A stretch of 64,000 nt of DNA, taken from the NCBI GenBank assembly GCA_963796685.1, contig CAWCMR010000025.1, positions 1,824,001-1,888,000 on the forward strand, given 5' to 3'. Shown here piece after piece: positions 45,186 to 57,271 of the stretch (position 1 is its first letter; the number at the start of each line of letters is the position of its first letter). This DNA comes from an uncultured delta proteobacterium (GTDB lineage Bacteria > Myxococcota_A > Polyangia > Fen-1088). Under the pieces are notes generated by a model that searched no databases, was not told where the DNA came from, and saw only the letters and a program-made list of their open reading frames with translations. Both the position numbers and the translations under genes were made by a program.

Positions 45186-45256
45186 CGCGTTGCCCTTACC
45201 CTTAAGCGGTGGGTGGCCGTCCGCGGCCGTGCATCCGCTTCAACGCCTTGTTCGGC
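45180..45256 (-). repeat. attC site
   Basis: GGCTAAC...TTCAACGCCTTGTTCGGC imperfect palindrome. Confidence 0.75.
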
Positions 45257-45300
45257 GCCGGCCTGGCTGGGGCGCCACGGTGGGAGAGTCCGAAAAGTAC

Positions 45301-45349
45301 GCCGCCAAGCCGGCGCTGCGGGATTGCCTGCTGCAACGGCTTGTTAGCC
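45301..45349 (-). repeat. Half attC (R'' arm)
   Basis: CTGCAACGGCTTGTTAGCC. Confidence 0.65.
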
Positions 45350-45360
45350 GGCTACCAGGC

Positions 45361-45379
45361 TGCTAGCATAATGCTAGCA
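45361..45379. promoter_or_regulatory. Palindromic operator of the FitAB-like TA
   Basis: TGCTAGCA-TAA-TGCTAGCA overlapping -10-like CATAAT. Confidence 0.7.
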
Positions 45380-45387
45380 GGCGAACC

Positions 45388-45615
45388 ATGGCAACTCTCA
45401 CGATTAGAAATGTCCCCGAGAAGGTCACAAAGTCTCTAAAGACTCTAGCCCGAAAGAACCATCGTTCGATGGAGCAGGAGGTGCGCGAGCTCATCAACGA
45501 ACACGTCGGTGAACGACTCTCTGTCCTAGACCAAATCGAAGCCGGATGGGTCAAGCAGACACGTCGTCCGACCGCTGCTGAGGTCGAAGGATGGATCGCC
45601 ACGGGGCGAGAATGA
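45388..45615 (+). CDS. FitA-like RHH antitoxin
   Basis: MATLTIRNV...LK.LA..NHRSMEQEVR. Confidence 0.88.
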   Translation: MATLTIRNVPEKVTKSLKTLARKNHRSMEQEVRELINEHVGERLSVLDQIEAGWVKQTRRPTAAEVEGWIATGRE

Positions 45616-46022
45616 AAGCGGTCGTCGATACGAACGTCCTCGCGTATTTCCTTTTGGGCACGCGATCATTCGTAGAGGAAGCCGGCCGCTTCTGGCACGC
45701 TCTCGATGGTGCCCTGGCGCCGGCGGTGTGGGAAGCGGAGTTGGCGAATGTCATTTGGATGGCCGTACGCTCCGAGGTCATTCCGGGCGAGGAGGGCAGG
45801 AAACGTCTCAGCCTCGCAGGGAAGATGGGAATCCAGTCCGTCCCGAGCAAGACTTTGTGGCACGGTGCTCTTGAGCGGGCGGTTCGCTCGGGGGTGGCGG
45901 TGTACGATACCCTGTTCGTCGAACTTGCCTGTCGCGAGAACCTCCCACTTGCAACCTTTGATGCGAAAGTGCTCGCGGCATTTCCCGAGATTGCCCTCCG
46001 CCCGAAGGTTCTCGCCCCGTAA
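45612..46022 (+). CDS. PIN-domain (VapC/FitB) toxin
   Basis: VVDTNV, YD.LF and LATFD; ATGA overlap with the antitoxin. Confidence 0.9.
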   Translation: MKAVVDTNVLAYFLLGTRSFVEEAGRFWHALDGALAPAVWEAELANVIWMAVRSEVIPGEEGRKRLSLAGKMGIQSVPSKTLWHGALERAVRSGVAVYDTLFVELACRENLPLATFDAKVLAAFPEIALRPKVLAP

Positions 46023-46036
46023 CAACTGAACCCCAG

Positions 46037-46147
46037 ACGGAGGTCGGTACTTTCAAGCGCTTCAGTCGGCCTAGCGAGCTGATGGGCTTCACCGGACTCG
46101 TGCCAAGCGAGCACTCCACCGGCCGACGCGAGGCCAAGGGAGGCACC
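46037..46147 (+). pseudogene. Internal fragment of an IS110 transposase
   Basis: EVGTFKRFSRPSELMGFTGLVPSEHSTG. Confidence 0.75.
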
Positions 46148-46184
46148 GGCAGGTCGGGGATCTGCCGGGACGATCGGAACACGG

Positions 46185-46370
46185 TCACCTCACAAACCGC
46201 TTCTTAACATCCTCATGCGACAGGCCCAGTCCCGCCTCTGACTGTTCCAGGCCGCGCTCGATCTTGGCCAAGAAGTACAGGCGCTCCATCGCGTCCTCCA
46301 CCGTCGCATCATCCGGTAGATGCTCGACGATCTCCATGATCTTCTGCTTCACGCTGGGGGAGGAACCCAT
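46185..46370 (-). CDS. Small antitoxin-like protein; partner toxin missing
   Basis: LPDDATVEDAMERLYFLAKIERGL...SHEDVKKRF, a type usually found upstream of RelE/ParE. Confidence 0.7.
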   Translation of the reverse strand: MGSSPSVKQKIMEIVEHLPDDATVEDAMERLYFLAKIERGLEQSEAGLGLSHEDVKKRFVR

Positions 46371-46421
46371 GTCTGAAAGATAGCATACGGCCGGAACTCG
46401 TGCCGCGATGGCTGCTCGTCC

Positions 46422-46545
46422 GCCCAACGCCCAGCTCAGTCTGGACCTGGGATAGCTGCGGGCCCGCCGCACTCGCCGTCCCCTCGATGATACTACGATG
46501 TCCCTGGCGGCGGGACCGTCAGTCAGCTTCATCGGCTTGTTCGAC
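46422..46545 (-). repeat. attC site
   Basis: GCCCAAC...CTTCATCGGCTTGTTCGAC. Confidence 0.8.
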
Positions 46546-46824
46546 GGCGGACGCTCGCAACAATTCTTGCTACCAGGAGTCCAGCAGCGAGCGCCGCGAG
46601 AAGGAGGCTGGCTACGAAGCAAACACCCCAGCGTCGGCGTGCCAAGTTGCGCGCATCGCGGCCACGCAATCCGGATCGGCTTTTCGGCTTCTGCAAACGT
46701 GCGCCTGTAGGACAAGAGGAGCGATCCCAATGCCGAAGAGAAGGTAGCCGACTCCCAAAGCCACGACCGCCGCCGTAAAGAACAGGGGCCACAGTGTTGC
46801 GGTCTTTGTCATCGGTATCGCCAA
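46529..46824 (-). pseudogene. Small membrane cassette protein, probably frameshifted
   Basis: Two hydrophobic segments lie in different frames between two attC sites. Confidence 0.5.
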
Positions 46825-46839
46825 GATGGTTCCCCGTCT

Positions 46840-46904
46840 GTCGAACGCCTTGCCGTTAACGCGCGGGCGCGCAAGCGCCCGTCGCGTTCAACGCCTTGTT
46901 CGAC
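46840..46904 (-). repeat. attC site
   Basis: GTCGAACGCCTTGCCGTTAAC...GTTCAACGCCTTGTTCGAC. Confidence 0.9.
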
Positions 46905-47383
46905 GGTGCCTCGCCTCCTTGAATCAGACTTTGCCTTCCTATTGGACTCAAGCCGTCGTTGTAGATGTTGACGGCATCATATATGTGGCTCAGCCCCGTG
47001 GCACCCACGACGGCTCCGCCTGTGAGCGACGCGAAGCCCGTGATAGCAAGGGCGGCGGATATGTCTCTGTGCCCACCGTTACCACTTGGGTTCACGGCAA
47101 TCGCGGTCGCCAGAGACGCCAGTGCTACTGCGGTCAAGATTGCCCAGATCCTCGATCGCTGAACGAAGACCCGCGCATGATCCTCAGCAACTGGGTTGCC
47201 TGTAACGGCGCGGATCGGATCACTCGACAGCCCGCTCGCACCGTATCTTTGGCCGTCTTTGTAGAGGGAGATTCCAGGACCGTCCAAGACGAAGCTGACT
47301 CGTCCCGAATCTTGAGGACGATAGCTCGTGGCGCATCCCGCGAAGAGCAATCCGATGCTGACGACAACAGCTGCCAATTTCAT
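46856..47383 (-). CDS. Cassette lipoprotein with two TM segments
   Basis: FAGC lipobox; ORF ends inside the attC. Confidence 0.75.
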   Translation of the reverse strand: MKLAAVVVSIGLLFAGCATSYRPQDSGRVSFVLDGPGISLYKDGQRYGASGLSSDPIRAVTGNPVAEDHARVFVQRSRIWAILTAVALASLATAIAVNPSGNGGHRDISAALAITGFASLTGGAVVGATGLSHIYDAVNIYNDGLSPIGRQSLIQGGEAPSNKALNATGACAPAR

Positions 47384-47416
47384 GGAACCTTTGCACTCCC
47401 CTAAAGAATTGCATCC

Positions 47417-47487
47417 GTCGAACGCCTTGCCGTTCAGCTGCGAGCGGCCGTCCACGGCCGATCGACAGCTTCAACGGCATGTTAGGC
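47417..47487 (-). repeat. attC site
   Basis: GTCGAAC...CAGCTTCAACGGCATGTTAGGC. Confidence 0.9.
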
Positions 47488-47715
47488 CGCGTCCCGCATA
47501 GCTCGGGCTACCGGTCGCGGAAGCGCGAGCGGCACGAAAAACTTCTCCGGGTAGAGATAGTCTTCACCGGACTCGTCCACAACCCGCACCAGACCGCGCG
47601 CCGCTGCGGTACGATCCGCCACACGCTCGTAGAGTCGGCGCACCAGGAGCGAAGCAGGATAACCATCGTTCCTGACACAAAGTACGTAGCTCTTCGTTGA
47701 CCTTGTCTTCTTCAT
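47482..47715 (-). CDS. Conserved-looking hypothetical protein, second gene of a TA-like pair
   Basis: YPASL...RVVDESGEDYLYP; ATGA overlap with the upstream gene. Confidence 0.75.
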   Translation of the reverse strand: MKKTRSTKSYVLCVRNDGYPASLLVRRLYERVADRTAAARGLVRVVDESGEDYLYPEKFFVPLALPRPVARAMRDAA

Positions 47716-47954
47716 CGCAACACACCAAGCAGGCGCTTGATCTTGAACTCTTTCCGGCCGACGCCGTGACTTTCGTACCAGTGTACCTCAGCGGGCGATG
47801 TCGTTCCATCCGGCAGTCGAACGACGGCTATGCCCTTCATCTTTCGCCAACGCCCGCGACCGTAGACCTTCTGAAGTCTCGCGGTTTCGCGGATTTTCCC
47901 GCCGACGGCGATCACCTCCTCGCCGGCAATCTGGCCGACGATCTCGAAGGCCAT
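47712..47954 (-). CDS. Basic hypothetical protein, first gene of a TA-like pair
   Basis: GRWRKMKG...AEVHWYESHGVGRKEFKIK. Confidence 0.75.
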   Translation of the reverse strand: MAFEIVGQIAGEEVIAVGGKIRETARLQKVYGRGRWRKMKGIAVVRLPDGTTSPAEVHWYESHGVGRKEFKIKRLLGVLR

Positions 47955-48252
47955 GGGGCTCAACCTCAAAGAGAAGAGCAGCGGCACCATGCACGGCCAG
48001 ATCAAGATCACCAAACGTGGTCCGTCCCGGGTGCGCCAGCTCCTGTGGCTCGCCATTTTCCGTTGGATTCAGAAGGATCCCATCGCCAACGCCTGGTACC
48101 AACGTAAAAAGCAGCGCGACGGTGGCCGAGCCTCGCGGGCCGCGGTCGCGCTGATGCGCAAGCTGGCCAAGGGCCTCTTCCACGTCGCTCGTGGCGTCAT
48201 CTTCGACAGCAGCAAGCTCTTCGACACCCGTCGTTTGCAGGTGGCGACGTAG
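47953..48252 (+). pseudogene. C-terminal remnant of an IS110-family transposase
   Basis: GLNLKEKSSG...ITKRG...A.VALMRKL. Confidence 0.85.
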
Positions 48253-48278
48253 CCATGGTGGTCTTCGGCCGATCCATG

Positions 48279-48549
48279 TTGAACATTCTCGATTTCCGAG
48301 GAGTGACCTTCAGTTGCAGCGTATCTCTGCCTCGTGCAAGAGCGCCATCAGTCTCGAGGCACCCCGCGGACCTTTGACCTGACCTGCCCATATGGTCAGA
48401 CCCGATTACAGGAAAGGAGCAACCAACCCCAGTCAACGAATGCTTTGAACGTGTGAGATCTCCGACGGGTGACCTTCTGTTGAAGCTCATCTCTGCCTTG
48501 CGCAAGAGCGGCGTCCATTTCGAGGCACCCTGAGGATCTTCGACCTGAC
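48279..48549 (+). ncRNA. Predicted guide RNA with two tandem 105-nt loop modules
   Basis: Copies at 48279-48383 and 48445-48549 align without gaps, 82/105 identical by hand count, downstream of the IS110 remnant. Confidence 0.65.
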
Positions 48550-48768
48550 TCAATCTCCGTTGCCAGCTGACTCGGTGCCGTGACCTGCGGACATCCTACT
48601 GGAGCGTTTCGCTTACCCTGGCCGATTGCCTCCGGATCTCTCACCCGCTCAACCCGACCCGCGCAGGTGTTTCCTATTGCCGCTTTCTCTTCTCGCGGAA
48701 CGGATCTCGTGTGCCCTCAGCAGCCCGATCACTCCCTGTTCTTTTTGCTTGCACTCCGTACGAGCGAG

Positions 48769-48789
48769 CGCTGCAACGGCTTGTTCGGC
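48769..48789 (-). repeat. Half attC cut by the IS110 insertion
   Basis: CGCTGCAACGGCTTGTTCGGC directly abutting the IS end. Confidence 0.8.
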
Positions 48790-48800
48790 GGCTCTCACCT

Positions 48801-49232
48801 TCACGGAACCAATTCCAGGGCCTGGGACAGGCGAGGACCAATTCGGATAGCACCAAGGTCGCGCCTATCGGTCGTCAAAACTCGATAGACGCGCCGTCGT
48901 TCAGCCACTGCAGCTACGGTGCCATCAACCAAACCGAGGTTGAGTCCCGCAAATCTTGCATCCAGTTCCATGGATCTCGCGATGTCGGACGGAAGAGGTA
49001 TTTCATACTCGTATCGTGTTCCTGGATCGAAGATGTCCGCGACCAGCCTTCTCATGGCTGCGCGGTTGTCTCTGAGAAAGTAGTCAACCTCGGCGAGAAC
49101 GAGCCCCGGCACGATTACCGAACTTGCTGACGCTAGCGCCTCCTCGTACTCCGGAAAGCTTGGCGCGCCATCTCGGCCGCAAGCTAGCGCGCGAAGGAGT
49201 CCACCGGTGTCTGCGACAAGCGCTGATCTCAA
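48801..49232 (-). CDS. PIN-domain (VapC) toxin
   Basis: LVADTG, VLAEVDY, LGLVD and VLTTDRRD. Confidence 0.88.
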   Translation of the reverse strand: MRSALVADTGGLLRALACGRDGAPSFPEYEEALASASSVIVPGLVLAEVDYFLRDNRAAMRRLVADIFDPGTRYEYEIPLPSDIARSMELDARFAGLNLGLVDGTVAAVAERRRVYRVLTTDRRDLGAIRIGPRLSQALELVP

Positions 49233-49456
49233 TCCTTGAGATCCTTGAAAAGTAGGGACTCATCGCCAAGTTTGCTGTCGGTCGATTCGAACAGACTGGT
49301 CGTGGGGGGCCGGCGGCCCGAGTAGTACCGCGAGGCCACAACGCGCAACCCCTTTCGGATAAGCTCCGAAGCCGAATGCCCCGCAGCACGAGCCTTCTTC
49401 AAAGCTCGGATGTCATCCTCTTCCAGTCGGACCGTGGTTGAAGTGAGACGCGCCAT
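49229..49456 (-). CDS. RHH/CopG antitoxin (VapB-like)
   Basis: TTVRL...SASELIR; overlaps the toxin start. Confidence 0.8.
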   Translation of the reverse strand: MARLTSTTVRLEEDDIRALKKARAAGHSASELIRKGLRVVASRYYSGRRPPTTSLFESTDSKLGDESLLFKDLKD

Positions 49457-49517
49457 ACACTCACCATACATCGCAAAGACAGGCTGCGGCAACGGTTTCT
49501 CGTAGCCGCAACAGTCC

Positions 49518-49622
49518 GCCCAACGCTTTGCCGTTAAGCGGCGAGCCCGCCGCACGAGCGGTTCGCTGATGTTACTCCGATTTCCCTGCGGCGGGATCGT
49601 CCGCTGCAACGGCTTGTTCGGC
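49518..49622 (-). repeat. attC site
   Basis: GCCCAAC...CCGCTGCAACGGCTTGTTCGGC. Confidence 0.9.
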
Positions 49623-49698
49623 AGCAGCCACGACTCGAGAGAGAGGTTTGTGCCAGCATCAGACTGGACTCGGCCATTTCTCAGAGTATCGTGTTTCA

Positions 49699-50919
49699 GT
49701 GGTAACATCTCCCCGATTTGTCCTCGCAGAACCTGACTCCTTCCTTCACTGGCTGGCGTCCGGCGAATCCGATCTGTCCCTCGATGCCGTTGATGTCATG
49801 GAGGTATGGGCTTTGGTTGGGCTAGCCACCCTCGCCAGGAGAGGAAATGTCACCCCGATACAACTGGATACGAGTGGTGGAAAACCTGCCACCCGGTTTG
49901 CAAAGGCCCTCGGCATTGATAGCGTAATCGAGGGTAAGGTAGCTGCGGGGCCGGTGGAGGAAGGCCGTACGGTAAGGCTCACCAATATCCAAGGGTTTCC
50001 TGGTCGCTCCCCGTACGAGGTTGCAGGCGAGATCGCCAAACTCGCGATACCAGATGACACCGATGACACGCATCACACGATCTACTACGTGCTTGCCGAA
50101 CTCCTGCGGAATGTTGTGCAGCACAGCTACGATAAGCTCGGTGGTATCGTAGCAGCTCAACTCATGTCTGCAGGGCGCGGTGGTTACGACCGGGACACCG
50201 TACAGGTGGCTGTCGCAGACGCCGGGATCGGCATACCTGAGAGTCTGCGCCACTTCCATCCCAAGTACGATGACGCTGCTGCTGCGCTCGTTCGTGCACT
50301 TGACCCACACGTTTCCGGAAAATTCGAACCGGGCCTGTCTGGGACTGAGGAGAATGCTGGACTGGGGCTTTTCTTTATTGCGGAGATGGCAAAGCAGGCG
50401 GCCGGCCGCTTGTTGATCGCGACGCGAGGCGCACGTCTGTTACTTGAGGGGGCCAGATCAGGTCAGCCGCAGCGTCTCGACGTAAAACCAGTTGGGTTCT
50501 CCGGAACATTGGTGGCGTTTGAGCTTCCGGATCGCGGCGTTGGGAGCAACCACGATCTGCTTCAAAAGATCAACGAATTGGCTCGACAGCGCACTCCCAA
50601 ACGCGTCACCGAGCACTGGTTAAGGTACGAGGCGGTCCCCAAAGGCGTGCAGCGATTCCTTGTCTCCATTGCAGCAGAAGACACAACTGCCGCGCGATCA
50701 TACTCAGAAGGACAATTGGAACCGCGGCTAGTAGAACGGGAGTCAGTTGCCCTCGATTTTGCGAACCTGTCGATTTGCACGCAGAGTTTCCTTCACGCCT
50801 TGTTGTATGAAGCTCTCCGACTTGCCTGGGCGAAGCGAGTGCCGATTTACGTGATGAATGTGAGACCAGCAGTGCGGAGCAGCCTTGATCTTTTGGAAAG
50901 CTACGCTCTGGGCGGTTGA
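49699..50919 (+). CDS. GHKL/HATPase protein with C-terminal STAS-like (DUF4325-like) domain, inverted in its cassette
   Basis: ELLRNVVQHS, VADAGIGI, NAGLGL, GT.V and LDFANL..CTQSF; start approximate. Confidence 0.78.
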   Translation: MVTSPRFVLAEPDSFLHWLASGESDLSLDAVDVMEVWALVGLATLARRGNVTPIQLDTSGGKPATRFAKALGIDSVIEGKVAAGPVEEGRTVRLTNIQGFPGRSPYEVAGEIAKLAIPDDTDDTHHTIYYVLAELLRNVVQHSYDKLGGIVAAQLMSAGRGGYDRDTVQVAVADAGIGIPESLRHFHPKYDDAAAALVRALDPHVSGKFEPGLSGTEENAGLGLFFIAEMAKQAAGRLLIATRGARLLLEGARSGQPQRLDVKPVGFSGTLVAFELPDRGVGSNHDLLQKINELARQRTPKRVTEHWLRYEAVPKGVQRFLVSIAAEDTTAARSYSEGQLEPRLVERESVALDFANLSICTQSFLHALLYEALRLAWAKRVPIYVMNVRPAVRSSLDLLESYALGG

Positions 50920-50960
50920 ACTCAAACGGCCACCAGCGCACGACCGGAACAGTTGTGTCT

Positions 50961-51065
50961 GCCGAACGCCTTGCCGTTAAGCGGTCTGGGCGCCGCCAAG
51001 CCGACGCCGCGATTCTACGCCGATGCCGCTGCGGCGACCAGATCCACTGCAACGGCTTGTTCGGC
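50961..51065 (-). repeat. attC site
   Basis: GCCGAAC...CACTGCAACGGCTTGTTCGGC. Confidence 0.9.
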
Positions 51066-51237
51066 GGCGGCCGCTACTTTGGCAATCCTGGCAGGACGGA
51101 GCGCCAATCAACCTCCGCGAATCGACAGACATACGCGAAGCCCATCGATCCCATGGCTGGGAATCGCTGTGAGACTGTTGCAGAGGTCTTCTGAATACAG
51201 GAGGCGCCACGCCCGGCAAACGCCTTCGACTCCCGCG

Positions 51238-52305
51238 CTAGGGTGAGATCCGTCCGATCTTGTTGCCAGCGCATTCCGTGAACCAGAGATTTCCGTCCGG
51301 CCCGCCTACGATTGCAACCGGCTCGCTGCCCGGACTTGGCAACGGAAATTCGGTCACGGTGCCAGCGGGGGAGATTCGCCCTATCTTGTTGCCTTGGGAC
51401 TCCACAAACCAGACATTGCCGTCGGAGCCCGCCGTGATTCCGTTCGGGTAGCTGGACGTGGTCGGAATATCGAATTCGGTTATGGTCCCGCTGATCGTGA
51501 TGCGACCAATCTTGTTGGTCGAAGATTCGGTGAACCAAAGGTTGCCATCAGCACCGGTTGCGATGTGCGCGGGGCCAGAGAGAGGGGAGGGAACAGGAAA
51601 TTCATGGATATCCCCACCTGGAGTCATCTGTCCAATCCGGTTTGCGGCGTACTCAGCGAACCAGATATTGCTATCAGTATCGCAAGCAATTCCGCTCGGC
51701 CCGCCAGTAAGCCCGTCTGCCAGGCTGGGGATCCGAAATTCGTTGATCGTACCCGCAAGAGCGCCGGTCGGCGTAATCGAGGCTAGGTTCTTGGCCCAGC
51801 TCTCGGTGAACCAAAGACCTCCGCTTGGGCAACTAACGATTTCATCCGGTTGGCTCCTCGGAGTGGCGATTGGAAATTCGGTGACTGTCCCCGTGGGAGT
51901 AATACGACCTATCGCATCTCCGCCGAGGACACTATAGGGTGCCCACAAACTGCCTCGCTCGGTAAACCAGAGATTGCCGTCTCCCCCGGCTGCGATTGCA
52001 GTAGGCGCGCTACCGGGAGAGAGCGAGAACTCGCTCACACCTCCGACAAGCGTGATCCGTCCGATCTTGTCACTACTGAACTCGGTGAACCACAGAGCGC
52101 CATCCGGCCCGGCGGCGATTCCGGAGGGGCAAGTCGCCGCGGTGAGGACGGGAAACTCTGCAATCGATCCCGCGGCGCGCCAGCTGTCTCCGCCAGCGCT
52201 GTCGATAGCCGCTCCGTCTGCTGGCATCGGACCTGAGTCAGAACCGCAGGCCGCGAGGGTAGTCGAAAGGAGAATGAGCGCAAACGCACGAGGCTTGAGA
52301 AGCAC
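51238..52305 (-). CDS. Vgb (virginiamycin B lyase)-like beta-propeller lipoprotein
   Basis: LAAC lipobox and seven GI..GPDG.LWFTE...KIGRI repeats. Confidence 0.85.
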   Translation of the reverse strand: MLLKPRAFALILLSTTLAACGSDSGPMPADGAAIDSAGGDSWRAAGSIAEFPVLTAATCPSGIAAGPDGALWFTEFSSDKIGRITLVGGVSEFSLSPGSAPTAIAAGGDGNLWFTERGSLWAPYSVLGGDAIGRITPTGTVTEFPIATPRSQPDEIVSCPSGGLWFTESWAKNLASITPTGALAGTINEFRIPSLADGLTGGPSGIACDTDSNIWFAEYAANRIGQMTPGGDIHEFPVPSPLSGPAHIATGADGNLWFTESSTNKIGRITISGTITEFDIPTTSSYPNGITAGSDGNVWFVESQGNKIGRISPAGTVTEFPLPSPGSEPVAIVGGPDGNLWFTECAGNKIGRISP

Positions 52306-52458
52306 ATCAGGATCTTACTCGCTTGCCGGCAAAGGGGCAATAGCTCGCAGCGGAGATCGCAGCGGAGACCGGGGTGTGACAGCCACCACGCGCTGGCCGC
52401 AATACCACACCGTATTGCTCCCGCTGGTGAAGCGAGGTTTCCTGAGTGGATTTCGTCC

Positions 52459-52565
52459 GCCGAACGCCTTGCCCTTCAGACTGCAAGCCCGCCGCCGAGC
52501 CCGGCCGTTCGATGATACTGCGATTTCCCTGCGGCGGGATCGTCAGGTGCAACGGCTTGTTGGGC
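52459..52565 (-). repeat. attC site
   Basis: GCCGAAC...GGTGCAACGGCTTGTTGGGC. Confidence 0.9.
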
Positions 52566-52623
52566 AGCCCTTCAGCCGCACGACGTCTTGACGTCATAAC
52601 GTTTCTGCGCCATGATTCCACTC

Positions 52624-52854
52624 ATGGCCCTGGCAAAGCGCGCAACTGTCTACCTTGAACCCGACCTGCACCGCGCCCTTCGAATGAAGGCCGCGGAGAC
52701 AGACCACACGGTTTCCGACCTGGTGAACGACGCTGTCCGGCAGCAGATGTCGGAAGATGCGGACGACCTTGAGGCATTCCGAGCACGGGCGAAAGAGGCC
52801 ACGTTGCCCTTCGAGACGCTGGTTCGGGACCTGAAGCGTCGTGGCAAGCTATAG
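52624..52854 (+). CDS. CopG/RHH antitoxin
   Basis: KRATVYL..DLHRALR.KAAET..TVSDLVN; upstream TTGACG within GACGTC repeats. Confidence 0.85.
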   Translation: MALAKRATVYLEPDLHRALRMKAAETDHTVSDLVNDAVRQQMSEDADDLEAFRARAKEATLPFETLVRDLKRRGKL

Positions 52855-53098
52855 GATCGAGGTCAAGAGGTCCGCCTCCAAGGAGATCGCCGACCTCCCC
52901 AAGGCGGAATGCCAACGCGTGGTCGCGCGGATCCAAGCACTTGGGGACGAGCCGCGCGCGCATGGCTGCGAGAAACTGACCGGCGACGACAAGTATCGCG
53001 TTCGGCAGGGTAACTACCGGATCCTTTACGAAATCGACGACGAATCCAGGGTGATCACCATCGTGAAGGTCGGGAATCGCAAAGAGGTCTATCGCTGA
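52841..53098 (+). CDS. RelE/ParE family toxin
   Basis: YRVRQGNYRILYEI...VGNRKEVYR. Confidence 0.92.
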   Translation: MASYRIEVKRSASKEIADLPKAECQRVVARIQALGDEPRAHGCEKLTGDDKYRVRQGNYRILYEIDDESRVITIVKVGNRKEVYR

Positions 53099-53110
53099 CC
53101 GAGCGGGTCT

Positions 53111-53184
53111 GCCCAACGCTATGGCGTTCACCTGCGGGCGGGCGCCGCAGGCGACCGACCGTCAGGTGCAACGCCTTGTTGGCC
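53111..53184 (-). repeat. attC site of the first cassette
   Basis: GCCCAAC...GGTGCAACGCCTTGTTGGCC; R'' is complementary to the attI core. Confidence 0.92.
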
Positions 53185-56675: not shown

Positions 56676-57271
56676 TCACGTGTGGACCAGATCGCCCAGC
56701 CACTCCAGCTCGCGCCCGAGGACTGGTACAGGAACAACAGCGCGGCGAGCGCCTGGTTTTGCGTGGATGCGTCATCGACGGGTGGTTCAAAAATCCCTGT
56801 GTCGCTTGTGGCCCGAAAATCCCGGGCAGGGGCCGCCCTGCGGCCCATACCTGCCCTCATCACGGGCAAGCCCTGCAAATCAAGGGGCGCCAGAGGCGCC
56901 GAGCGAAGCGAGCTTGCCCTTGATTAGCAGGGCGGCCGTGATTTCGGAGCCACCGACAAGGAATTTCCGAGCCACCGCCAGTGAAGGGATGCGCTGACCT
57001 TCCCGTCGACGGCGAGGCTGGACAGAAAGGCGCCGACTTCGACGCCCCCCATTTGGTCGGGATGGCGCTTGCCGTGAAACACGACGTAGCGCCTGACCCA
57101 ACCCACATAGGCCCGTACGGTGCGCGGGCTGTAGTGCCGGGCGCGCAACCCGGTGCGCACGCGGTCGAGCAAGCGCGGCGGACTGGCCGAAATCTGGCCG
57201 GCATGTCCGGATTCCGGCCGCGAAAGTGGAATGATCTTGGCACCTCGGCCGAAGTCTGGATCGTTGGGCAC
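56676..57271 (-). pseudogene. intI: Integron integrase, N-terminal remnant
   Basis: RLLDRVR..LR.RHYS.RT..AY..W.RR...FHGKRHP...VSAS / TQNQAL.ALLFLY / VLGRELEWLGDLV; catalytic domain absent; start approximate. Confidence 0.9.
56772..56986. mobile_element. 215-bp MITE-like insertion inside intI
   Basis: Flanked by direct repeat GGATGCG (56765-71 and 56987-93); imperfect reiterated inverted ends. Confidence 0.75.

Follow-up and report, generated by a model that had tools for sequence, protein, structure and literature searches.

A truncated IS1111-type element in a Myxococcota attC array probably carries a conserved second target-type guide loop

Insertion sequences (IS) of the IS110 family and its IS1111 group find their targets through bridge or seek RNAs, for which a single target loop per element has been described, either together with one donor loop or by itself. 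The DNA considered here (the window) is a stretch of 64,000 nt from an uncultured myxobacterium (assembly GCA_963796685.1, contig CAWCMR010000025.1, positions 1,824,001 to 1,888,000, forward strand), in which positions 47944-48764 are a 5'-truncated IS110-family element of IS1111-type layout lying inside an attC of a Myxococcota cassette array. Downstream of what is left of its transposase gene stand two tandem modules of the same fold, followed by a separate donor-binding loop. The first module guided the insertion of this copy and guides most insertions in the family, and comparison with relatives suggests that the second is probably a conserved and working second target-type loop.

The closest described systems are the seekRNAs of the IS1111-type elements ISEc11, ISPa11, ISKpn4 and ISPst6. 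In the published description of these RNAs the guide region lies downstream of the transposase gene as a stem-loop unit of about 80-100 nt, the match to the top strand lies 5' of the match to the bottom strand, and changes in the loop naturally retarget close relatives (PMC11187229). All of these traits recur in the window family, which also shares with ISKpn4 and ISPst6 the targeting of attC reported in that account (PMC11187229). The same description speaks of one unit per element, whereas two tandem target-type units are found here and one to three in relatives, and it gives the IS1111 group near-perfect subterminal inverted repeats of 11-13 bp with terminal extensions of about 7 bp and 3 bp, whereas the subterminal repeats of the window family are imperfect (PMC11187229). 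The point of insertion also differs. ISKpn4 is tabulated as entering attC between TTGAA and CGAATTGTTAG (PMC13604230); unlike ISKpn4 and ISPst6, the window family uses a point about 9 nt more distant from the GTT core, between ...GTC and NGCTGCAAC GGCTTGTT. A blastn search of the region against plasmids gave no match, and among 72,556 plasmid records there was no plasmid-borne IS110-family transposase at least 30% identical. The window family is thus not close to the described attC-targeting IS1111 elements, as judged by insertion point and plasmid records, the sequence of ISKpn4 itself lying outside the comparison.

The bridge RNA of IS621 offers a second comparison. As there, the window family has separate target- and donor-binding internal loops, each of which reads both DNA strands around a shared junction dinucleotide (PMC11208160, PMC13626964), and two extra handshake-like bases match the partner DNA (PMC13626964). 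In contrast to IS621 as described, the RNA region lies at the 3' end of the element and has three loops instead of two, and the junction dinucleotide is AG instead of CT (PMC11208160); further, the left junction is constant, and it is the bases following the right end that change with the target. In CazIS110-1 an RNA consisting of the target loop only has been described beside the full bridge RNA, the two serving different steps, which is a precedent for more than one RNA species with a target loop (10.1101/2025.10.25.684509). According to the same report, the second species of CazIS110-1 is a truncated product of one and the same loop, unlike the separate modules of the window family. A literature search returned no description of a natural IS110/IS1111 element whose target-binding loops are multiple or arranged in tandem, although supplementary folds and tables, which were outside the search, may show such a structure.

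The two modules belong to the only direct-repeat family returned by the repeat finder, with copies of 105 nt at 48279-48383 and 48445-48549 that are 78% identical without gaps and spaced by 166 nt, exactly as a first-pass annotation made from the sequence alone had placed them. Minimum free energy (MFE) folds of both 78-nt cores give an outer stem and an inner hairpin separated by an internal loop whose two strands are 9 nt each, which is the architecture proposed in that annotation; its coordinates for the left loop strands (48313-48321 and 48479-48487) were likewise confirmed. Across 99 distinct modules, a set that includes relatives on Methylococcales-type contigs with only 40% transposase identity, the 21 proposed pairs are paired in 86.0% of cases, compared with at most 52.3% when the partners are slid. 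Double-sided changes occur in 13 of the 21 pairs, and none of 500 shuffles reached the observed values. Covariation at the sequence level therefore supports the module fold, although the same pair counts fit RNA and single-stranded DNA alike. The modules were folded and counted separately because the RNAalifold consensus of the whole region (10 copies), while recovering module 1 and a hairpin in the tail, paired module 2 wrongly with distant sequence. An Rfam scan of 47000-49800 with E up to 10 returned no relevant family. The same scan gave a weak match to 'drum' at 49325-49407(-) (25.8 bits against a gathering score of 43, E 0.047), which lies inside an antitoxin gene and is probably due to chance.

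The point at which the family inserts was defined from 13 full-length copies in five genomes of the same genus, aligned for their ends and target. At the left junction, variable attC sequence ending in C(G/A)(T/A)C is followed by the constant AG-TCAGCTAAAGGTAG; at the right junction, ...CACT(C/G)C(G/C)TACGAG is followed by NGCT(G/T)CAAC GGCTTGTT, the long attC arm. The dinucleotide AG is thus present at both junctions. In the window copy the IS ends at 48764, CGAG is repeated at 48765-48768 and the flank CGCTGCAAC follows at 48769-48777; the first-pass annotation had set the element directly against the attC arm at 48769, which is right once this duplication is taken into account. All 47 insertions that could be scored lie at the same point and in the same orientation in attC arms of cassette arrays. 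The family therefore inserts at one fixed point of the attC arm, between ...C(G/A)TC and NGCT(G/T)CAAC, in Myxococcota cassette arrays. The crossover itself may be read in two ways, either with AG shared by target and IS or with an ordinary arm and a left AG that belongs to the IS; in locus L088 the guide and the left junction both read CG. Some unoccupied attC arms have an extra AG at the insertion point (...TC-AG-CGCT(G/T)CAAC), namely C25:1552328, C8:671433 and C8:672341 in the same genome and L029 and L031 in genome G002; in these arms the AG is unpaired with respect to the other attC arm. Such arms may be excision footprints or preferred targets. Duplications at the junctions are irregular, with no fixed target duplication (CGAG in the window copy and in L125, CGTACGAG in L060), and in L008 a 12-bp attC stretch (CGTCCGACCGTC) is present on both sides of the IS.

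The internal loops read this site on both strands. The 5' loop strand is the complement of the right-flank top strand, while the 3' loop strand reads in the sense of the left flank and continues through the junction AG into the first two bases of the IS (CCGTC-AG-TC) in a handshake-like manner; the top-strand match thus lies 5' of the bottom-strand match, the order found in the IS1111 group. In the window copy the 5' guide of module 1, GTTGCAGCG, is the reverse complement of the flank CGCTGCAAC at all nine positions, which bears out the earlier claim that module 1 matches an attC variant. Between the window copy and the intact copy of the same genome the guides differ exactly where the flanks differ (GTTGCAGCG with CGCTGCAAC, GTTGAATCG with CGCTTCAAC).

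In all, 81 module-bearing elements, 64 of them unique, were gathered from relatives, public genomes and metagenome contigs, the public records of relatives being labelled as Myxococcales or Polyangia metagenome-assembled genomes (MAGs). Of the unique elements 47 could be scored; those left out of the flank statistics were L008 (the 12-bp junction duplication), L007 (a 1-nt flank deletion), L009 (a remnant) and elements whose contig contains no right flank or whose guide is of a length other than 9 nt. The first or only module matches its own right flank at a mean of 7.98 of 9 positions against 7.24 after shuffling, a value reached in 0 of 5000 shuffles, and in 43 of 47 elements guide and flank agree at position 5, although kin among these elements are not independent and the figures overstate the number of independent events. 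In the three-module element L042 the first module (ATTGCAGCG) fits an unusual flank (CGCTGCAAT) at 9/9, and the other two modules resemble both modules of L085. The loop strands of the first or only module thus covary with the insertion site, as in bridge and seek RNAs, and together with the fold covariation this upholds the earlier assignment of the repeats to guide-loop modules of that type. On these sequence comparisons, it is module 1 that guided the window insertion and that guides most insertions in the family. In many elements (for example L002, L010 and L086) a systematic mismatch occurs at guide position 7, where a guide T stands opposite a flank C or G, as in GTTGAATCG against CGCTTCAAC.

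The donor loop is a third and separate structure. Its 5' strand, AGCTGACTCG, is the 10-nt reverse complement of CG-AG-TCAGCT, the right end joined to the left end, as is found for the donor loops of bridge and seek RNAs; its 3' strand, CTACTGGAGCG, fits the right end and the first flank bases only with a 2-nt bulge (CCTAC..GAGCG). The donor strands are the most conserved part of the whole region, with identities of 0.94 and 0.99. Relatives with 40% transposase identity have the same scaffold, and their 3' strand, TATGACAGG, is exactly their own right end in L049 and L050. The earlier suggestion that a third stem (ACCTGCG at 48583 with CGCAGGT at 48662) might hold the donor loop was half right, since that stem is not conserved in relatives but a donor-type loop does lie nearby, at 48565-48606. 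The relatives on Methylococcales-type contigs (L049, L050, L113, L128, L130 and L132, about 40% transposase identity) have one target loop and a donor loop, and they adjoin ..YAACGTTRGGGTA-AG followed at the boundary by TCAGCT, which also resembles an integron recombination site.

Two modules are the rule in this family. Among 52 unique insertions with a donor loop seen downstream, 42 have two modules, nine have one and a single element (L042) has three, in agreement with the earlier proposal of a tandem arrangement; counted as distinct guide sets, there are 27 with two modules, seven with one and one with three. In one-module elements the module sits at the position of module 2, directly before the donor loop, and matches the flanks, which indicates that module 2 is ancestral and that module 1 was added. 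A transposase tree, made by quick search only, has one-module outgroups and a clade of 26 members, with transposases differing by up to about 20%, of which 22 have two modules, one has three and three have one. The 5' guides of modules 1 and 2 differ in 26 of the 27 two-module guide sets, and the usual pair is a CTGCAAC-type guide with a CTTCAAC-type guide. Conservation was taken as mean pairwise identity over 24 distinct two-module elements, with third codon positions of the transposase from 15 of the 24. Module 2 scores 0.87-0.92 in its scaffold, 0.85 in its 5' guide and 0.78 in its 3' guide, and the linker to the donor loop 0.905, compared with 0.67 for the spacer and 0.70 for third codon positions, a neutral level of about 0.68. 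By these sequence measures module 2 is retained and constrained.

The features of the window copy are collected in Table 1.

Table 1. Coordinates of the truncated element and its right flank in the window.
Feature	Position	Strand	Details
Transposase gene 3' end (last ~100 codons)	47944..48252	+	PF02371; tblastn residues 322-422, 93%
IS 3' non-coding region, encoding the putative guide RNA, to the canonical right end ...CCGTACGAG	48253..48764	+	
Module 1, target-binding loop	48294..48371	+	5' guide GTTGCAGCG 48313-48321; 3' guide CCATCAGTC 48345-48353
Inter-module spacer	48372..48459	+	Near-neutral rate: mean pairwise identity 0.67 vs 0.70 at transposase third codon positions
Module 2, probable second target-type loop adjoining the donor loop	48460..48537	+	5' strand GTTGAAGCT 48479-48487; 3' strand GCGTCCATT 48511-48519
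Donor-binding loop	48565..48606	+	5' strand AGCTGACTCG 48565-48574; hairpin 48574-48595; 3' strand CTACTGGAGCG 48596-48606
Long conserved hairpin, tail of the non-coding region	48660..48716	+	RNAalifold consensus, 10 copies
Right end: imperfect subterminal inverted repeat (48734-48754) and terminal extension TCCGTACGAG	48734..48764	+	
CGAG, 4-nt duplication of the last IS bases	48765..48768	+	Absent from the other aligned copies and from contigs of 4 runs
Right half of the interrupted attC (CGCTGCAACGGCTTGTTCGGCGGC...)	48769..48795	+	Same arm in intact attCs, e.g. 49600-49625; genome attC census

Whether module 2 also directs insertions is a finer question, and we regard its acting as an alternative guide as evenly balanced on the sequence evidence. 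On the positive side, the left strand of module 2 is the reverse complement of a real attC variant, AGCTTCAAC, in keeping with the earlier claim that each module matches an attC variant, and free attC arms matching the module 2 guide at 9/9 number four in the window's own genome (G000), one of them at window 47467-47475, and two in G004. Three insertions fit module 2 better than module 1, with scores of 8 against 5 (L063), 8 against 6 (L127) and 9 against 7 (L058). Several observations weigh on the other side. Among 37 multi-module elements the best fit to the flank is given by module 1 in 26 and by module 2 in three, with eight ties, and the last module of multi-module elements scores 7.14 of 9 against 7.23 shuffled, 4682 of 5000 shuffles being at least as high. 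Nearly all module 2 guides have A at position 5, so that the apparent 'rescue' of T-type flanks is expected by chance. The module 2 guide of G002 (target AGCCACAAC) finds at best 7/9 among 56 free arms and that of G010 at best 8/9 among 74, while module 2 of G001 has lost 14 nt of the 5' outer stem and gained one base in the guide. In the sublineage of the window the 3' strand of module 2 ends in TT where the IS begins with TC, and in the window copy itself this strand (GCGTC-CA-TT) is without the junction dinucleotide and the two IS-end bases found in module 1. The z-scores of single-sequence folds are weak (-1.79 and -0.89), and the window copy, being truncated, cannot transpose alone. In favour, as a weak hint of transcription, contigs of three wetland RNA libraries (85-95% alike) span the transposase 3' end, both modules, the donor loop and the right end of relatives, but these may represent carried-over DNA. 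The earlier idea of a repertoire for several targets thus stands as regards the existence and retention of tandem target-type loops, but not as regards covariation, which is seen between flanks and the first or only module and is absent for the last module, the better fit in only 3 of 37 elements.

The strongest competing explanation is that module 2 has been kept as a scaffold only, forming together with the donor loop a full-length bridge RNA for handling of the ends, circle formation or second strand transfer. Target choice would then belong to module 1 alone, perhaps as a separate short RNA, and module 2 would be attC-like because the full RNA sits loosely on the flanks. The lack of flank covariation in the last module speaks for this explanation, as do the higher conservation of scaffold (0.87-0.92) and donor linker (0.905) than of the 3' guide of module 2 (0.78), the poor match of the G002 and G010 module 2 guides to any attC arm of their hosts, and the alteration of the handshake-like bases to TT in many copies. 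There are also parallels in the published accounts, in which a loop-only RNA and a full bridge RNA do different jobs in another IS110 element (10.1101/2025.10.25.684509) and IS1111-type transposases carry a short and a long RNA (PMC11187229). Against it, the 5' guide of module 2 stays attC-like with an identity of 0.85, well above neutral, the three insertions named above fit module 2 over module 1, and each of the three modules of L042 has a different attC-like guide with an intact 3' strand. Moreover, one-module relatives use the donor-adjacent module as their sole target loop, and the scaffold of this module is therefore competent. We consider a purely structural role unlikely, though it deserves to be taken seriously. 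That module 2 is instead a functionless leftover of a tandem duplication in the course of decay is improbable: the deletion of 14 nt and insertion of 1 nt in G001 and the 3' strand of the window copy, the most deviant of all copies, would suit such a fate, but two modules are kept in 22 of the 26 clade members, the conservation of module 2 equals that of module 1 and greatly exceeds that of the spacer and of third codon positions, and the stems of module 2 show changes that preserve pairing.

Two further explanations concern the kind of structure that the repeats represent. Since two similar consecutive loops are the textbook layout of a bridge RNA in the published account (Durrant et al. 2024, PMC11208160), module 1 might be the target loop and module 2 the donor loop of an ordinary two-loop RNA. 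It is the downstream loop that matches the joined ends, and as a separate loop does so, module 2 is not the donor loop; this match is kept as far as relatives with 40% transposase identity, whereas the strands of module 2 have no match to the joined ends, and one-module relatives have the downstream loop beside a single module that matches the flank. Provided that the element ends are rightly assigned, the two-loop layout is scarcely credible here, which accords with the earlier view that this is not an ordinary bridge RNA. The repeats might also act as DNA, either as folded single strands or as binding sites of the transposase, an explanation open to the pair counts, which do not separate RNA from single-stranded DNA. 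It is nonetheless very improbable, given that relatives in the same protein family use RNA from the equivalent region as described (Siddiquee et al. 2024, PMC11187229), that pairs of the G-U type have been retained (at columns 17/66, UG in 95 of 99 modules) and that contigs from RNA libraries span the region. Other assignments for module 2 were tried and rejected: as the donor loop, it has no match of at least 7 nt to the joined ends in the right geometry; its pairing with the subterminal repeat (GTTGAAG, left end) shows no covariation across lineages; and a role as an excision guide specialised for either junction of the resident copy fails because its strands fit neither one.

Returning to module 2 as a second target-type loop, the RNA would be composed, from 5' to 3', of the target-binding loop (module 1), the paralogous target-type loop (module 2) and the donor-binding loop, the 5' strand of each target-type loop being expected to pair, on the right-hand side of the insertion point, with the top strand. 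Module 2 would be tuned to another class of attC (AG-CTTCAAC) and, although far less often used, would not be a relic. We infer that module 2 may direct insertions, that the RNA may be made and processed, and that the remnant may supply guides in trans to the intact copy. As regards expression, one contig of the RNA libraries runs from module 1 into module 2, again with DNA carry-over possible, and transcription of the guide region has a weak hint in its favour. A promoter scan of 47700-48900 found no promoter-like site, and a terminator scan of the same interval found one terminator-like site, on the minus strand, which is at the level of chance.

More tentatively, the clade as a whole may carry small guide arrays, in which one to three independently evolving target loops serve one donor loop and one recombinase. 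Loops would be added on the transposase-proximal side by duplication or unequal recombination, each opening another class of attC, and remnants that have all the loops but no transposase would guide in trans. With a guide for CGCTGCAAC in the window remnant and a guide for CG(A)TTCAAC in the intact copy, the target range of the recombinase would then be set by live and dead copies together. CRISPR and TIGR guide arrays likewise have a conserved scaffold alternating with variable guide segments in tandem. They differ from the modules of the window family, which number only one to three units of about 80-105 nt with spacers of about 60-90 nt, are without acquisition machinery and apparently grow by duplication or unequal recombination.

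The element itself is well identified. The open reading frame (ORF) at 47953-48252(+) matches Pfam Transposase_20 (PF02371) with E 2.2e-7 over profile positions 38-87 of 87, so only the C-terminus of the transposase is present; with the attC flank, this match substantiates the earlier reading of the locus as a C-terminal IS110 transposase remnant in a bisected attC. The genome assembly (7.3 Mb in 26 contigs) has one intact copy, locus L002 on contig C10, which is 95% identical to the window copy over 814 nt and 96% over 514 nt of the non-coding region, where copies of sister genomes are 79-91% identical. BLAST homology begins at L002 position 1140, corresponding to about 47946 in the window, and everything to the left of about 47944 has been deleted from the window copy, so that the gene has lost its first three quarters and both the left IS end and the second attC half are gone. 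In the intact copy the gene product is a protein of 422 aa (P0001) with matches to PF01548 (E 2.9e-9) and PF02371 (E 4.7e-15), the N-terminal DEDD/RuvC-like and C-terminal transposase domains of the IS110 family, and its score of 122.1 bits with NCBIfam NF033542, below the cut-off of 140, marks it as a divergent member. In this copy the gene is preceded by no more than 88 nt and followed by 517 nt, the long downstream region typical of the IS1111 group. The subterminal inverted repeat of L002 matches at 18/23 positions, starting 14 nt inside the left tip and 9 nt inside the right one; its score was reached in 2 of 500 shuffles in L002 and 3 of 500 in L017, as against 146 of 500 in L006 and 159 of 500 in L008, and one paired change between the IS ends occurs in L008.

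Other truncated scraps were found in the same and sister genomes (L003 at C9:49493-49684 of the same genome, L016 and L009), the same genome having one scrap of 111 nt on C9 beside the intact copy, and decay of these IS elements within cassette arrays is common. On the left of the window copy, the minus-strand cassette ORF at 47712-47954, for which a Pfam scan gave no match, has its first three codons (ATGGCCTTC), start codon included, in IS-homologous DNA. This cassette gene was probably cut by the same deletion that truncated the IS.

The surrounding attC array extends over about 45200-53150 with no adjacent integron integrase, and the genome has several separate attC arrays. On contigs C9, C22 and C6 there are three integrases that score above the TIGR02249 cut-off, and a TIGR02249 match in the window (56981-57172) spans only profile positions 1-64. 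Three of the cassettes encode toxin-antitoxin pairs, namely a FitA-like ribbon-helix-helix (RHH) protein with a PIN protein at 45388-46022(+), an RHH protein with a PIN protein at 48801-49459(-), and an RHH antitoxin with a ParE toxin at 52612-53098(+). The cassette at 49648-50919(+) encodes a protein of 423 aa in which a histidine-kinase-like ATPase domain (PF02518, E 1.1e-6) is the only domain recognised, and that at 51238-52305(-) a virginiamycin B lyase family protein of 355 aa (PF24684, E 1.5e-107) with a signal-peptide-like start.

The long retention of two target-type loops, with three in one element, would demonstrate that multiplexing is within reach of these recombinases. It would further illustrate a route by which specificity evolves, in which a loop is duplicated and one copy is then retargeted, and this bears on the design of bridge editors for several sites. 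If module 2 is only a scaffold, the donor-adjacent loop would have a role beyond the choice of target, which bears on the 'long' RNA of IS1111-type elements. For the organisms concerned, the element represents a second, unrelated lineage of attC-targeting IS with an insertion point of its own, resident in the large chromosomal cassette arrays of soil and wetland Myxococcota, where the splitting of attC sites by such elements can freeze or reshuffle cassettes.

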